Source: Candidatus Saccharimonadales bacterium
GTDB lineage: Bacteria > Patescibacteriota > Saccharimonadia > Saccharimonadales > JAXHNE01
Assembly (NCBI GenBank): GCA_041600755.1
Contig: JBFIJL010000004.1
Span: 10,612 to 74,611, forward strand
Direction: 5' to 3'
Length of the DNA stretch: 64,000 nucleotides
The notes beneath the pieces are model-generated. The model saw only the letters and a list, made by a program, of their open reading frames with translations, had not been told where the DNA came from and made no database searches. Positions 4,983 to 40,031 of the stretch are shown piece after piece (the stretch's first letter is position 1; each line of letters begins with the position of its first letter). A program made the position numbers and the translations under genes.

Positions 4983-5324
4983 ATGCGAGTAAAACGAGGC
5001 GTCACAACGCACGCGCGACACCAGAAAATCCGTAAAGCAACGAAGGGCATGAGCAAAGCAAACCGCTCAAGTGTTCGACGTGGTAAACAAGCAATCACCA
5101 AATCACTTGTTTATGCAACACGTGACCGCAAAAACCGTAAGCGAACCTTCCGTCAGCTATGGAACACTCGCATCAACGCTGCTGCGCGTCTAAATGACAC
5201 TACTTACAGCAAACTAATAGCTGGACTAAAGAAGGCCAACATCGAAGTTGACCGTAAGATTCTAAGTGAACTTGCCGTTAACGAGCCTGCAGCCTTCACT
5301 GCAATCGCAAAAGCTGCAAAATAG
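4983..5324 (+). CDS. rplT: 50S ribosomal protein L20
   Basis: MRVKRGVTTHARHQKIRKATKG...RDRKNRKRTFRQLW is a typical bL20. Confidence 0.95.
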   Translation: MRVKRGVTTHARHQKIRKATKGMSKANRSSVRRGKQAITKSLVYATRDRKNRKRTFRQLWNTRINAAARLNDTTYSKLIAGLKKANIEVDRKILSELAVNEPAAFTAIAKAAK

Positions 5325-5354
5325 TTCAGTAAGCACGCTCTATGAGCTCTAATT

Positions 5355-5387
5355 AAAATAGCCTGGATTTATTCCAGGCTATTTTTT
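5355..5387 (+). terminator. intrinsic terminator after rplT
   Basis: 9-bp stem tagcctgga/tccaggcta (5359-5367 / 5373-5381) followed by TTTTTT. Confidence 0.7.
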
Positions 5388-5466
5388 CGTATTTCAGGAA
5401 AGAGCAGCACTAATGAAGCTTACTTCATTAGTGCGATGAGAAAACCTATCTCGGTTTTCTCATATT

Positions 5467-5840
5467 GTTAGGCTACCTATAAGCCGGGTTCTGTACCCCG
5501 CTCTACCTTCTTTTTTCAAAAAGATAAAGCGGGGCGTCGATCATCTATCTAGTTCTATCGTTGCCAATAGAATCAAGCGGATCTTGTGATGCTACCGAGA
5601 CGGGACGCCATATTCGATAACACCTCCTTGCAGCCGACAGGGTTTACCTCCCCCGCACGTCACCGTGAAGGGCTGTGAGCTCTTACCTCACTCGTTTCAC
5701 CTTTACTACCGAAGTAGTAGTTTCGTTTCTGTGGCACTTTCCCTAGAGTTTCCTCTGGTTGCCGTTAGCAACTGTCGTTCCCTATGCTGCCCGGACTTTC
5801 CTCCCGCAATAAATTGCAGGCGATCGACCAGCAACCTAAC
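5467..5840 (-). ncRNA. rnpB: RNase P RNA (bacterial type A-like)
   Basis: The minus strand reads GAGGAAAGUCCGGGC (CR-I), GGGAAAGUGCCACAGAAA, GGUGAAACGAGUGAGGUAAGAGCUCACAG and the 3' ACAGAACCCGGCUUAU. All closely parallel E. coli M1 RNA. The P1 helix gttaggttgct/aggtagcctaac defines the ends (~374 nt). Confidence 0.85.
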
Positions 5841-8493: not shown

Positions 8494-8682
8494 ATGCAGA
8501 AATGTGAACTCACCGGAAAAGGCAAGCAATACGGTAGCAATGTCAGCTTCTCTCAGCGCCACACCAAGAAGGTCTGGAAGCCAAATCTTCAGACTAAGAC
8601 TGTTGTAGTTGACGGCAAAAAAGTAAAGATGAAAATCAGTACCCAAGCCATCCGCACTCTCAAGAAAAAGGGTCTTTTGTAG
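8494..8682 (+). CDS. rpmB: 50S ribosomal protein L28
   Basis: MQKCELTGKGKQYGSNVSFSQRHTKKVWKPNLQ is a typical bL28. Start set at ATG 8494, after aggaa. Confidence 0.9.
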   Translation: MQKCELTGKGKQYGSNVSFSQRHTKKVWKPNLQTKTVVVDGKKVKMKISTQAIRTLKKKGLL

Positions 8683-8704
8683 AAATACAACTCGTCAAAA
8701 TACT

Positions 8705-8735
8705 AAAAGAGCTCGATAGAAAGTCGAGCTCTTTT
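8705..8735. terminator. bidirectional intrinsic terminator between convergent genes
   Basis: Perfect 12-bp stem aaaagagctcga/tcgagctctttt with a 7-nt loop, with A and T runs inside both arms. Confidence 0.65.
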
Positions 8736-8750
8736 AGATTAATTGATCTG

Positions 8751-9380
8751 TTATTGTCGCTCTAAGATAACTATTTCTGGAATCTCAGGAAAATCAGAAG
8801 AAGACTTTAGCTTGAGCTTTGGCACTGCTTCTTTCATCTCGAACGGTAAATCCTTGATTGCATCAGCTAGGGCCGATTGTGGAACCTCGTACGACAAGTC
8901 CTTATCCTCGTAGTGCGTCGGAATAACAATCTTAGGCTCGAAGGCCTTGATTACTTTACTCGCTCCAATGGCGTCAAGTGTGTAGCCGTGATTGCCGACT
9001 GGCACGATAAGTACATCAACAGTACCAATTGTTTCTAGCTGGCTCTCTGCCAGGTCGGCAAATATGTGTCCAGCCACCACAACGCGTATGTCAGCAATAT
9101 CAAACTTGAAAATAGTCGCGGATTTTTTCTTCGGCTCATCCATATGGGCTCGAGCCTCAATAGCCTTGATTGAAATGTCTGACACTTCGTATTCGCCAGG
9201 ACGATCAATAATAATTTTTGGGGCTTTCTTTGGCTTAAAGTCACCGTGTGTTCGCACGAAAATGTCACCATCCTTAGTGACGGCCGAAGCGCCTAGAGAT
9301 TCCAGGTTATCGTCGATAACCACAACGGCTTTCTTATATGCAATCCGAATACAGTTAGCACCATAAAATTGAATTTCCAC
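8751..9380 (-). CDS. MBL-fold metallo-hydrolase (UPF0173-like)
   Basis: MEIQFYGANCIRI...VVIDD...VVVAGHIFADL...LIVPVGNHGYTLD...VIPTHY pattern. Confidence 0.7.
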   Translation of the reverse strand: MEIQFYGANCIRIAYKKAVVVIDDNLESLGASAVTKDGDIFVRTHGDFKPKKAPKIIIDRPGEYEVSDISIKAIEARAHMDEPKKKSATIFKFDIADIRVVVAGHIFADLAESQLETIGTVDVLIVPVGNHGYTLDAIGASKVIKAFEPKIVIPTHYEDKDLSYEVPQSALADAIKDLPFEMKEAVPKLKLKSSSDFPEIPEIVILERQ

Positions 9381-10071: not shown

Positions 10072-10944
10072 CTATCTGTAATTATTCAGAAATTCTTCTA
10101 TTCTGTCAGTCGCCTCACTCTGTTCGCTCACCCATTGAATACTTTTGTTTCGCTTGAACCATGTCAGCTGTCTCTTCGCGAGTTGAGCATCTTTACGGGC
10201 AAAAATATCCTCGGCCTGTTCAAGCGTTATTTCTCCAGCGTCAAGCTGAGCAAACGCAAGGTAGCCTGGGTCGCGCAGTACTTTAGAGTCTGGAAATTTT
10301 TTATACAGCTTCCGGGCCTCATCTGGAAGGCCAAGTCCGACCATCTGGTAGACTCTATTTTTTATACGTTTTTTGAGCGTGGTTCTATCGACATGAATAC
10401 CTAAAATGAGCGTATCTTTTCTTAGTGGGTTAGATTTTGGCTTTGCGCCTTTATTTTCAATAACCCGCATCAAATGCCGTGGATTCTGTTTGTTTTCTGG
10501 CATTGGCAAGTCCTCGGCTTTAATGCGTGCCTGCAGCTCTTCAACTGTCATATTCCGCAAGCTAGCTCGCAAAGCCTCATCTGGTGGTGCGGTAAACTCA
10601 TAGTCAAAAATCACTGCATCAATATACAGGCCACTGCCACCAACCATAATTGGGACTTTGCCGCGTGCAGAAATATCTTTAATGGCCGCTGTCGCCTGCT
10701 CTTTAAAGTCGGAAACGTTGAAAGTCTCATCGGGTGTCACAACATCAAGCAAATGATGCGGCACATCACGCCTATAGCGAGCGGTAGGCTTAGCTGTGCC
10801 GATGTCCATGCCTTTATAAATTGTGCGCGAATCTGCACAAATTATCTCACCACCAACTTGTTGCGCCACTTCCATCGCCAGTCCAGACTTACCACTGGCA
10901 GTGGGACCAACAATGACTATTAGAGGTTGTTTTTTGGTTGCCAT
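10072..10944 (-). CDS. miaA: tRNA dimethylallyltransferase
   Basis: P-loop GPTASGKS, then DSRTIYKGMDIGTAKPT and VPHHLLD. Confidence 0.9.
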   Translation of the reverse strand: MATKKQPLIVIVGPTASGKSGLAMEVAQQVGGEIICADSRTIYKGMDIGTAKPTARYRRDVPHHLLDVVTPDETFNVSDFKEQATAAIKDISARGKVPIMVGGSGLYIDAVIFDYEFTAPPDEALRASLRNMTVEELQARIKAEDLPMPENKQNPRHLMRVIENKGAKPKSNPLRKDTLILGIHVDRTTLKKRIKNRVYQMVGLGLPDEARKLYKKFPDSKVLRDPGYLAFAQLDAGEITLEQAEDIFARKDAQLAKRQLTWFKRNKSIQWVSEQSEATDRIEEFLNNYR

Positions 10945-13780: not shown

Positions 13781-13799
13781 TGGTGGGCTCGGAGGAACT
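13781..13799 (-). repeat. exact 19-nt copy of the 3' end of tRNA-Val (AGUUCCUCCGAGCCCACCA)
   Basis: tggtgggctcggaggaact at 13781-13799 is identical to 13970-13988, the 3' terminus of the intact tRNA-Val. Confidence 0.85.
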
Positions 13800-13969
13800 T
13801 GACCTACGTTCCGCAGGCCCGAAACTTCTGCTATGAAAGCAAGCTTTCAAGTGAAGATTTCCTTGCAAACTGCCGCTGGCAGTTCTCACCCAACCTCCTT
13901 GGGGTCGGTGATTCGACTCACAACTGATCATGCAAAGCAAAAACTCACCGCTTGGGTGAGTTTTTGCTT

Positions 13970-14046
13970 TGGTGGGCTCGGAGGAACTCGAATCCCCGAC
14001 CTCCTCAACGTCAATGAGGCGCTCTAGCCAACTGAGCTACGAGCCC
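13970..14046 (-). tRNA. tRNA-Val (anticodon GAC), CCA encoded
   Basis: Manual cloverleaf: GGGCUCG/CGAGCCC acceptor, GCUC..GAGC D arm, CCUCA-UUGACGU-UGAGG anticodon arm, GGGGA-UUCGAGU-UCCUC T arm, A73-CCA. Confidence 0.9.
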
Positions 14047-14132
14047 TTGCGGTGGGTCTCGTACCACAGTGGTGACCGCCTAGCGCAGACTATTACTTCT
14101 ACGGCGAGCTGTCCCAACTGAGCTACGAGCCC
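14047..14132 (-). pseudogene. degenerate tRNA-Val-like sequence (shares the first 19 nt with tRNA-Val; no foldable T arm)
   Basis: Starts GGGCUCGUAGCUCAGUUGG, identical to tRNA-Val (14114-14132 = 14028-14046), and ends CGAGaCCCACC. The interior offers only a 5-bp UCGCC/GGCGG stem around 22 nt, and 14 nt where the variable loop and T arm should be. Confidence 0.4.
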
Positions 14133-21869: not shown

Positions 21870-22165
21870 CTGGAGCATCTGATTAGCGAAGCAAGGAAAA
21901 CTCAAACAGCCACAGGCTGTTTTCGCCTTTCGGTTCGACTCATGAAAGAACAAAAGCCGACAATACGTCTGTACTATCAGCTTTTGGTGCCCCGGGTAAG
22001 AGTCGACTAAAGATGCTCACTCGAATGCTAAAGCATCTCGTTCGGCCAAGCAAGGAAAACTCAAACAGCCACAGGCTGTTTTCGCCTTTCGGTTCGACTC
22101 ATGAAAGAACAAAAGCCGACAATACGTCTGTACTATCAGCTTTTGGTGCCCCGGGTAAGAGTCGA
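21870..22165. repeat. tandem direct repeat (unit 159 bp; 117 bp identical) that includes the last 22 nt of tRNA-Arg
   Basis: 21890-22006 equals 22049-22165 (gcaaggaaaactcaaacagcc...tggtgccccgggtaagagtcga). Similarity continues, diverged, about 20 nt further left in both copies. Confidence 0.85.
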
Positions 22166-38147: not shown

Positions 38148-39233
38148 ATGAGTTTATCTATAGGAATTGTTGGACTGCCGAACGTTGGTAAATCGACGCT
38201 ATTTAACGCGCTGACTGATAGTAGTATCCTGGCGGCAAATTATCCATTTGCCACAATTGAACCAAATACCGGAACCGTACCAGTACCAGACGAACGCTTA
38301 AAGAAATTATCTGAAATGTACGACAACGCACCAATTAAGCCGGCAACCGTAGACTTTGTGGACATCGCAGGGCTAGTAGCGGGCGCCAGTAAAGGTGAAG
38401 GTCTGGGCAACCAATTTCTCAGTCACATTCGAGCCTGCAATGCAATCCTACAAGTTGTTCGCGGCTTTGAAGATGGCGATATTATTCGCAGCGACAGTTC
38501 ACGCGACCCCGCACACGATATAGACGTCATCAAGACCGAACTCGTGCTAGCCGACTTGCAAACAGTCACCAACCGTAAAACAAAGTTTGCCAAAGAAGCC
38601 CGCTCGAACCCAAAGCTAAAACCAGCTGCCGATACAATCGAAGCACTTGAATTACACCTCAACAATGGCAAGGCAGTATGGGAGGATTCAGCGCTTTTAG
38701 ATGATTATCAGGAACATGTTAGTGACCTGCAACTAATGACGACCAAGCCGATTTTGTATTTATTCAACATTGACGATACTGCACTCGGAAACGACGAGCA
38801 CAAACAAAAGCTTGCGAGCTTAGTAGCCCCTGCCCCGTCCGTATTTGTAAGCGCCAAGCTAGAAGACGAGCTGCGCGGGCTCGACCCAAGCGATCAAGCA
38901 GAATTCTTAGAAAGCTATGGGCAAAAAGAATCAGGACTAGTACAAGTTATTCACGCTGCTTATGACCTTCTCGGCCTTCAGAGCTATATCACCTCGGGCG
39001 GCACGGAAGTTCGAGCGTGGACAATTAAAAAGGGCGCAACAGCACCTCAGGCTGCCGGTGTAATCCATGGAGATTTTGAACGCGGGTTTATTGCTGCTCA
39101 GATTGTTTCATTCGAAGACTTGATCGCATCAGGCTCAGAATCTGAAGCCAGGAGCAAAGGCAAGATGCGCACCGAAGGAAAAACCTACGTCATGCAGCCT
39201 GACGACATCGTAGAATTTAAGTTTAATACTTAA
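38148..39233 (+). CDS. ychF: ribosome-binding ATPase YchF
   Basis: IGIVGLPNVGKST, DIAGLV, and a C-terminal TGS-like domain (RAWTIKKGATAPQAAGVIHGDFERGFI). Confidence 0.92.
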   Translation: MSLSIGIVGLPNVGKSTLFNALTDSSILAANYPFATIEPNTGTVPVPDERLKKLSEMYDNAPIKPATVDFVDIAGLVAGASKGEGLGNQFLSHIRACNAILQVVRGFEDGDIIRSDSSRDPAHDIDVIKTELVLADLQTVTNRKTKFAKEARSNPKLKPAADTIEALELHLNNGKAVWEDSALLDDYQEHVSDLQLMTTKPILYLFNIDDTALGNDEHKQKLASLVAPAPSVFVSAKLEDELRGLDPSDQAEFLESYGQKESGLVQVIHAAYDLLGLQSYITSGGTEVRAWTIKKGATAPQAAGVIHGDFERGFIAAQIVSFEDLIASGSESEARSKGKMRTEGKTYVMQPDDIVEFKFNT

Positions 39234-39364
39234 CGTGCCTCGGGAAGAGTAGCCCGACGAACGAATTTATTTCGTTCCCGGCGCGATGAGAAACCCGCTT
39301 GGGGGTGTCTCATGAGTGTGTCATGCAGCCCGACGACGTAGTTGAATTTAAGTTTAATACATAG
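39189..39364 (+). repeat. 45-bp direct repeat of the ychF 3' end flanking an 86-bp hairpin-rich insert
   Basis: 39189-39233 and 39320-39364 match at 39/45 positions. Both encode VMQPDD(I/V)VEFKFNT followed by a stop. Confidence 0.8.
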
Positions 39365-39365
39365 A

Positions 39366-40031
39366 CTAGGAATTATCGTTTGCCCAAGCAAGCGAAATAT
39401 TATTCACCACTCTGAATAAATCTTTGGTAGGGGGAATGGTGTTTTCATCGTAATAATGATCAATGCTAATAAAGTTATCAATCACATCCAAACAATGAAT
39501 TTCATCACCGATCAGATGCATCTTATCAATTGATTGTACTGTCGCAAAAGGAGTGACAATTATAAGCTTCTTCATAGAAATGCGCTTCAGATAGTCGTAT
39601 GCAACCTCTAGTGAAAACCCGTTTACAAGACCATCGGAAACAAGAATTACGGTATGGTGTCGTAGTCGCTCTTTTGGTATTTCGCCGTCTTGACCAAGAA
39701 GCATGTTCAAATTATGAAATCCTTCGCGTCGCTGCTGTTCGATAACAGAATGATAATCAGTATTAAATTCTTCTAACTCGCCTGCACTAAACTTGTGATT
39801 ATACGTAAAGGTATCGTCAGCGGTAATGCCTGCAATCGCATCGCTCTCACCAGGTAAGGTTATATTTTGCGTCAGTAGCAAAGAGAGATTGGCGTGATGC
39901 TTAATAGCAATCTGCGCACCGACAATTACCGCACCCCGACTAAGTGCAACAACAGCTAAATTTTCGCGATCCAGATGATTTAATTTTTTGCTTAGTTTAC
40001 GACCAGCTTCGGCTCGACTTTTGAAGTACAT
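39366..40031 (-). CDS. predicted phosphoribosyltransferase-fold protein (COG1926-like)
   Basis: FKSRAEAGRKLSKKL...AVVALSRGAVIVGAQIA and a PRPP-loop-like VILVSDGLVNGFS. Confidence 0.6.
   Translation of the reverse strand: MYFKSRAEAGRKLSKKLNHLDRENLAVVALSRGAVIVGAQIAIKHHANLSLLLTQNITLPGESDAIAGITADDTFTYNHKFSAGELEEFNTDYHSVIEQQRREGFHNLNMLLGQDGEIPKERLRHHTVILVSDGLVNGFSLEVAYDYLKRISMKKLIIVTPFATVQSIDKMHLIGDEIHCLDVIDNFISIDHYYDENTIPPTKDLFRVVNNISLAWANDNS

Follow-up and report, generated by a model that had tools for sequence, protein, structure and literature searches.

The window considered here is a stretch of 64,000 nt from a Candidatus Saccharimonadales bacterium (positions 10,612 to 74,611 of contig JBFIJL010000004.1, NCBI GenBank assembly GCA_041600755.1), and our subject is the 3' end of its ychF gene, which is present twice, together with the short structured element that lies between the two ends. 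The gene itself (38148..39233, + strand, positions being those of the window) appears in the open reading frame (ORF) list as intact, with 361 aa, and terminates in the first copy of the repeat, R1 (39189..39233, +), which consists of the last 14 ychF codons and TAA and is the functional end of the gene. It is followed by an insert of 86 nt (39234-39319) made up of a left spacer, CGTGCCT (39234..39240, +; 7 nt from the ychF stop to the element core), the element core of 73 nt (39241..39313, +) and a right spacer, GAGTGT (39314..39319, +; 6 nt from the 3' end of the element to the second copy), both spacers being locus-specific. The second copy, R2 (39320..39364, +), is a displaced, untranslated ychF end that occupies the ancestral position, a single base away from the stop of a convergent gene (39366..40031, − strand); this neighbour, which is the ancestral one of ychF, is intact, encodes 221 aa and is phosphoribosyltransferase-like according to a weak Pfam match. 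Homologues of the window YchF, with the Pfam domains MMR_HSR1 and YchF-GTPase_C, are 54% to 83% identical; 29 Saccharibacteria-labelled and several otherwise labelled species representatives fall between 54 and 70% identity, and, like the window, these have the local order ychF, tlyA, efp, rpsR, ssb, rpsF.

A prediction made earlier from the letters alone (the original prediction) had described the ychF end at 39189-39233 as recurring at 39320-39364 with 39 of 45 positions identical, and both codon-by-codon comparison and a repeat finder, which reports a single 44-nt direct repeat of 89% identity at a spacing of 131, bear this out. Both copies translate to VMQPDD(I/V)VEFKFNT and a stop, and the six differences (T/C, A/G, C/A, A/T, T/A and A/G) fall in five codons, four of them synonymous if TAA/TAG is counted and one an I/V exchange, with five of the six at third codon positions, so that the claim of mostly synonymous or conservative change also held. 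Given a BLAST E-value of 9e-9 for R1 against R2 within the 64-kb window and a z of 27.6 for local alignment of the two flanks against shuffles, the match is not due to chance. The two hairpins that had been seen in the insert, gaacgaa/ttcgttc (39259-39277) and atgagaaaccc/gggtgtctcat (39286-39296 / 39303-39313), are both present, and R2 does adjoin the convergent stop at 39366 as had been stated. At 57%, the G+C content of the insert exceeds that of the window (45.5%), and folding of the 151-nt region is better than that of shuffles, with a z of −3.2. A Logan contig (L039, run SRR29257386; loci and contigs are given such numbers below) is 100% identical over 1845 nt across the whole structure, which argues against an assembly artefact, to the extent that the two assemblies do not share reads.

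The five closest relatives retrieved (L040, L041, L042, L237 and L240), whose YchF proteins are 77-83% identical to that of the window, have neither the insert nor a second ychF end at this site. The ychF stop overlaps the following gene by 4 nt in L040, L042, L237 and L240 and lies 3 nt from it in L041, the following gene being a homologue of the convergent 221-aa gene in four of the five (not in L240), and the reading of the extra sequence as an insertion is in this respect confirmed. Because R2 adjoins the convergent stop, as ychF itself does in the insert-free relatives, it is the native end still in place, and the comparison shows the extra DNA to amount to 131 nt, namely R1, the 7-nt spacer, the element and the 6-nt spacer. 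R1 is probably the incoming, donor-type ychF end; its ATC GTA (I V) is derived, V V being what is read in R2 and in the close relatives.

The core opens with the single-stranded motif CGGGAAGAGUA, followed by a helix, P2, in which 39252-39256 pairs with 39279-39284, a variable hairpin, P3 (39259-39277), and a conserved hairpin, P4 (39286-39313). When metagenome contigs were scanned with the P4 pattern (ATGAGAAACCC, 3-9 nt, GGGTGTCTCAT), exact-core copies were found at at least 120 loci; 82 aligned copies were used to build a covariance model, to which the window core scores 80.6 bits (E = 6e-20), and 107 distinct copies among the matches listed served for the survey of duplications described below. 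Copies can be aligned over 70-75 nt, or over 83-88 nt in a subtype that has one more hairpin. They have in common three covarying helices and, on the 5' side, the conserved single-stranded motif GGGAAGAGCAG, with the consensus, 5' to 3', (Y)GGGAAGAGCAGCC(C/G)GA, variable P3, CC(G/C)GCGCG and then ATGAGAAACCC-loop-GGGTGTCTCAT (P4). Paired positions are kept in 99.2% of the cells of the alignment, and a covariation score as high as that observed is not attained by any of 500 shuffles; among the P2 pairs there is one that 53 copies have as C-G and 23 as G-C, and the distal P4 pair occurs as four pair types. For P3, the 82 aligned copies offer 67 different sequences, and at least five pairs form there in 93% of copies. 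Where near-identical cores lie at unrelated loci, the sequence in common extends at most 8 nt leftward and usually 0-3 nt rightward; as the similarity stops at ...CTCAT, the conserved unit ends there and the spacers are locus-specific. Comparison at the level of sequence thus shows the insert at ychF to be one copy of a widespread, gene-less, structured Saccharibacteria repeat of ~73 nt, and the covariance model finds about ten further copies in 600 kb of element-bearing loci, or roughly one per 50-60 kb.

A diverged second copy is present in the window at 5396..5463 (+; 39.7 bits, E = 5e-9), with no flanking duplication and with P4 preserved through compensatory changes (AACC/GGTT). It has a 113-aa ORF, which ends at 5324, on one side and on the other the RNase P RNA gene (5464-5839, minus strand), whose 3' end is turned towards it. 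The 113-aa ORF is read as rplT and is followed by a terminator-like hairpin at about 5350-5388, the tip of which (GGATTTATTCC) equals the commonest P3 hairpin of the element family.

The family appears to be previously undescribed, as far as database and literature comparisons go. A search of Rfam 15 with 39100-39450 gave no match up to E = 10, and with 20 element loci it gave rRNA and tRNA families only, none overlapping a copy of the element. Literature searches with motifs of the element gave no relevant paper, none was found that pairs Saccharibacteria with target-site duplication, and a broader search on repeats led, among the papers listed, to general reviews of MITEs (miniature transposable elements with inverted repeats) and of REP sequences, none of them mentioning Saccharibacteria. 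What has been found is essentially the outcome that the original prediction had named as speaking against itself, a repeat family unrelated to integration, albeit one that is itself apparently undescribed.

With respect to stable RNA genes, the copies are polar. In 15 of 17 cases, always co-oriented and with tRNAs of nine identities, a mature tRNA 5' end follows 6-8 nt after the 3' end of the element, and copies also stand 6-14 nt upstream of 5S rRNA (10 loci) and of 23S rRNA (3 loci), those associated with 5S rRNA being within the 23S-5S spacer wherever the contig shows the end of 23S; tRNAs on the 5' side of the element number only two. Other copies are between protein genes. In a single case (L048 2026-2098, minus strand), a 72-nt element lies in frame inside tlyA, an rRNA methyltransferase gene, where it lengthens the protein, between conserved blocks, by ~24 residues and leaves the frame open, there being no stop codon in it. 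The 674 ORFs within 3 kb of the copies listed were clustered and judged by sequence, without a Pfam scan; the resulting clusters are diverse and apparently housekeeping, lepA (7 loci), a 299-aa ORF cluster (8) and ychF (4) being examples of recurrent neighbours among the matches listed. On the same footing, no integrase, transposase, reverse transcriptase or RAYT gene was seen to recur within 3 kb of the 120 copies listed. TAC comes directly after the element in about a quarter of copies (for example L045, L057 and L145); in L057 and L145 this creates the TAA stop of a convergent gene, the last base of which is provided by the final T of the element, and a TGA is also available, in a second frame, from the reverse complement of the element end (ATGAGAC).

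About 16 of the 107 copies surveyed (~15%) lie between significant direct duplications of 16-68 nt, the duplicated ends being those of ychF, lepA and other genes, while ~85% of copies have no detectable duplication. The gene is co-oriented with the element in all nine 3'-end duplications. Most of these extend as far as the first two bases (TA) of the stop codon and differ in the third, and right spacers at the other duplicated sites are of about 3-10 nt, a length class that includes the 6-8 nt seen before tRNAs. The 3' end of lepA is duplicated over 42, 56 or 68 nt, three lengths that must therefore stem from separate events, and its 5' end is duplicated at two loci. Some pairs are identical or nearly so (L058 42/42, L128 66/68, L162 43/45 and L050 42/43), whereas others have diverged while keeping the peptide they encode; in L094 the copies differ by ten nucleotides with no amino-acid change at all. 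When seven duplications are pooled, 35 changed codons are synonymous and 10 non-synonymous, where neutral drift of one copy predicts ~31 non-synonymous codons (minimum 21 in 5000 simulations); both copies must therefore have been functional until recently, under selection at the protein level, and the original prediction, in deriving one of the copies from the functional end of a homologous gene, is on this point upheld across the family. At L094 (~8600-8900) a degenerate second element start (GGGGAGGAGCGACCGG...) follows the duplicated end, giving the order gene end, element, gene end, old element.

At ychF the arrangement recurs without being general. L043, with a YchF 79% identical to that of the window, has the ychF end, a homologous insert of 85 nt and a second in-frame ychF end, the stop of its R2-equivalent overlapping the ATG of a different next gene, DUF4260. 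The order ychF end, element, ychF end occurs in the window, L043 and L162 with an identical 45-nt boundary and differing downstream neighbours, and in L145 ychF is followed by a 29-nt spacer and the element, without duplication. A second ychF end within up to 4 kb downstream, as far as the contig reaches, is present in none of 38 species representatives, and the covariance model finds one copy only, that of L043, in 336 kb around ychF at 42 other Saccharibacteria loci. In a tree of YchF the three carriers interleave with the five empty sites, and each carrier retains an intact R2, which does not fit one ancient insertion after which R2 decayed neutrally; the pattern requires repeated gain and loss, or exchange. 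The original prediction had called for a look downstream of ychF in related genomes, for empty sites or for larger, integrase-bearing occupants; empty sites were found, whereas the 38 species representatives and 7 closer relatives (L040-L043, L237-L240) include no larger occupant, their 45 ychF loci without the element being either empty or occupied by conserved host genes (a bPH-domain gene, Crp, DUF4260). A conserved pair of genes for a bPH-domain protein and a Crp/Fnr-type regulator lies between ychF and the 221-aa gene in more distant relatives (L002-L011, L240); it has been lost from the site in the clade of the window and is absent elsewhere in the 64 kb.

The reading that we favour, with a probability of about one half, is that a gene end and the element behind it were imported together by recombination, with an illegitimate junction at the element's 3' end. 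Natural competence is a property of Saccharibacteria (PMC10633639). Starting from lineages in which the element stands after a gene end without duplication, of which L145 is an example, DNA of a relative containing gene end, spacer and element would enter through natural transformation and pair with the recipient through gene-body homology on one side. The far end of the incoming DNA, a few bases past the stable 3' hairpin P4, would have no homology downstream, and its illegitimate joining would take place slightly back within the gene end of the recipient itself, perhaps at a CAT(G) microhomology with the terminal CTCAT(G) of the element; the repeat starts at or beside CAT(G) in 5-6 of the nine cases. 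The product would have the order donor end, element, recipient end, and a precise loss through recombination between the two repeats could follow, which would explain the patchy distribution. Synonymous divergence of the copies, a boundary at the stop codon and variable lengths of the repeat are all to be expected from such an import. On this reading, the finding at the ychF end would concern a small recombining element rather than the scar of a large integrated one.

Several points weigh against this account. The CAT(G) microhomology was noticed post hoc, and three of the cases are the same ychF site; the mechanism is read from its end products, a donor-recipient pair having been identified for none of the cases. 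The copies at L058, L128 and L162, which are among the duplications that look most recent, are near-identical save for the third base of the stop codon, which fits a duplication of the target at insertion better than import from a diverged donor. The import of a gene end leaves the first arrival of an element beside a gene unexplained and gives no detailed prediction of the short spacers. Finally, a single ancient event at ychF would be expected to leave a decayed R2, so that the account has to suppose repeated gain and loss.

Duplication of the target at insertion is a serious rival, though on the whole an unlikely one. It supposes that the element, or an RNA copy of it, moves by transposition or retroposition and creates long target-site duplications of variable length, with staggered nicks 16-68 nt apart, so that R1 and R2 would be equal at birth and would diverge later through ordinary allelic exchange of the gene. 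The close agreement of the copies at L058, L162, L128 and L050 is what would be expected, as are the differing lengths between events at one gene and the dispersal over unrelated sites, including the in-frame copy in tlyA without notable duplication, and target-primed reverse transcription typically yields variable target duplications. It is harder to reconcile with the large majority of copies that have no detectable duplication and with the synonymous bias of the diverged duplicates, which is unlike neutral decay; moreover, the element lacks terminal inverted repeats, locus-specific spacers separate its core from the repeats, and no transposase or reverse transcriptase was found nearby. The original prediction had instead proposed the scar, or a miniature form, of an integrase-driven element with its attachment site in the 3' end of ychF and a replacement end as cargo, and a direct repeat that ends at the stop of the gene, a displaced copy in frame, synonymous differences, the 45-nt boundary common to the three ychF cases and the partial duplications of tRNA ends elsewhere in the window all speak in its favour. 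What stands of it is a miniature, gene-less element and a replacement end that came with incoming DNA, as the coding bias indicates, the copies being in frame with a stop and synonymous-biased as a functional replacement end should be. A ychF-specific element with a single fixed attachment site does not stand, since the same core occupies more than 100 other sites with duplications of 16-68 nt or none, and since the repeats at lepA are of three lengths. Nor does an integrase-bearing parent: only 86 nt lie between the repeats, no recombinase family recurs near the 120 copies listed, no integrase or larger occupant was found at ychF of the 45 element-free relatives or beside those copies, and viral contigs yielded no copy. 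We regard the classical integrase model as weak and very improbable. A local tandem duplication or slippage with subsequent drift, or a chance resemblance, is excluded at this locus, even though other duplications occur in the window (a 121-nt repeat at tRNA-Arg) and L094 has the order gene end, element, gene end, degenerate element: the insert belongs to a dispersed family and chance is excluded, and the 86 nt have no similarity to the sequence after R2, so that the insert was not copied from local DNA.

A different kind of explanation takes the element to be an RNA module of benefit to the host, such as a leader or processing signal, a stabiliser of 3' ends or an insulator of convergent genes, kept by selection, with the duplicated ends incidental to its acquisition; it is compatible with any insertion mechanism, and we judge it quite unlikely. 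The strong conservation of sequence and structure agrees with it, and the covariation argues that the folded form, whether RNA or single-stranded DNA, is under selection. The distances of 6-8 nt to tRNA 5' ends and 6-14 nt to 5S and 23S rRNA, and the presence of the element at the same genes in many contigs (lepA and the 299-aa ORF cluster), also favour a role of this kind. On the other side, the element is absent from ychF of the closest relatives and from 41 of 42 other Saccharibacteria ychF loci, and must therefore be dispensable there; it has no U-tract, and its G-U pairs carry no strand signal, as they number 8 and 7 on the two strands and the minus strand folds slightly better, which makes the assignment of a strand uninformative. 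The fixed 6-8 nt to the mature tRNA 5' end suggests that the element forms a transcribed leader, to be removed by RNase P. It is conceivable, if distinctly improbable, that this released leader RNA with its tail of 6-8 nt is the mobile form and returns to the genome, RNase P or an rRNA 5' nuclease releasing from tRNA and rRNA precursors a 5' leader that would prime or template DNA synthesis on other transcripts or on DNA, followed by recombination. Such a route would explain the constant distance from a point that exists only in RNA, the similar spacer (most often ~6 nt) before displaced ends and, as in retroposition, the long variable duplications.

Other identities were considered, most of them to be rejected. 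A known RNA family or ribozyme is not indicated by the Rfam search described above. An intrinsic terminator was not found by a scan of 39234-39319, P4 being followed by GAGTGT here and by variable bases elsewhere; having no U-tract, the element is not a canonical terminator. A promoter role (a −10 box 6-8 nt from the tRNA start) is conceivable but not supported, as the scan called no promoter at the end of the element, tRNAs without the element show no phased −10 signal, and covariation of the hairpin points to a folded single strand rather than a duplex binding site. For a diversity-generating retroelement, the mismatches between R1 and R2 follow no adenine rule, and no reverse transcriptase was noticed by eye, without a Pfam scan, among the ORFs listed for 36-43 kb. 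Phage origin is not indicated either: the exact core has no match in viral contigs, and the 73 matches to a looser pattern are all unrelated prophage coding sequence or chance.

Duplicated gene ends without the element also occur in the window. A direct repeat of 121 nt (21886-22006 / 22045-22165; 99% identical, spacing 159) consists of the last 22 nt of tRNA-Arg(CCT) and ~100 nt downstream of it, and the 38 nt between the copies resemble, in diverged form, the sequence after the second copy; as at ychF, a gene end is duplicated across a short insert, but without the element. At tRNA-Val (13970-14046, minus strand), both ends recur as partial copies (13781-13802 and 14114-14132): beyond a terminator-like hairpin, 167 nt downstream, there is a 22-nt copy of the 3' end with 95% identity, and 67 nt upstream an exact 19-nt copy of the 5' end; neither of the inserts matches the covariance model of the element. 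A second small repeat family includes a section of the tRNA-Arg repeat (TCATGAGTCGAACC..., with a hairpin and a T-run behind it). It is present at ~21886-21941 of the window and, in other Saccharibacteria contigs, on the downstream side of tRNAs (L112 2872-2922, L125 6476-6526 and L147 2175-2230); one tRNA of L112 stands between the main element, upstream of it, and this second repeat, downstream of it.

Saccharibacteria and other Patescibacteria have tiny, gene-dense genomes, the change of which is little understood, and the element combines two unusual properties, a fixed distance before the mature 5' ends of tRNA, 5S and 23S rRNA, and coding-competent copies of a gene's end that often bracket it when it lies next to protein genes. 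If the proposed recombination is correct, small elements would spread between related lineages while leaving overlapping genes undisturbed, with the displaced end serving as a portable homology arm; if mobility resides at the RNA level, the element would represent a new kind of bacterial retroposon, a counterpart of SINE-like retroposons. Either way, it provides a ready marker of recombination and of gain and loss in an uncultivated phylum, and it is a candidate for a new functional RNA that is testable in the few cultivated, transformable strains.

Considering how the element compares with known systems, the REP/BIME repeats (associated with RAYT) and the ERIC/IRU repeats are similar in being short, gene-less, hairpin-forming and conserved in structure, and in lying mostly between gene ends, often convergent ones. 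The element differs from REP/BIME in having three helices and an invariant single-stranded motif within 73 nt, rather than a single palindrome, as well as strict polarity, a fixed spacing before tRNA and rRNA and long duplications of gene ends, and the RAYT gene of these systems was not seen among the neighbours listed. MITEs, for example Correia and RUP, have been reviewed (PMC10969869). Like the element, they are small, non-autonomous mobile sequences that can alter or replace the termini of genes. Terminal inverted repeats are lacking in the element, as its ends, 5' GGGAAGAG... and 3' ...GTCTCAT, and the family consensus ends, GGGAAGAGCAG... and ...GGGTGTCTCAT, are not complementary, and in place of a short target duplication of fixed length its flanking duplications are absent or 16-68 nt long. 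The Rickettsia palindromic elements (RPE) are comparable in being inserted in frame in essential genes as well as at non-coding sites, and an in-frame insertion that leaves the ORF open is indeed seen at tlyA in L048, once only; the element is unlike them in sequence and host phylum. To our knowledge, neither duplication of gene ends nor linkage to tRNA 5' ends is a feature of RPE.

Replacement 3' ends are carried by phage 21 and e14 at icd in E. coli and by ICESt1 and an integrase-less CIME at fda in Streptococcus. These integrative elements and the element described here have in common a direct repeat at the 3' end of a gene, an in-frame displaced copy, mainly synonymous differences and an incoming functional end, whereas integrase, cargo, a fixed repeat length and a single target are found in the former and a 73-nt repeat only in the latter. 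Homology-facilitated illegitimate recombination has been mentioned in connection with natural transformation (PMC6382021). A one-sided anchor with an illegitimate joint, as in that process, would explain a donor end, a recipient end and variable junctions at the sites of the element. Recipient DNA is usually deleted in the classical form of this process, and is duplicated at the element sites. With neither terminal inverted repeats nor a target duplication of fixed length, and with no integrase, single attachment site or Rfam match, the element is a structured, gene-less repeat family.

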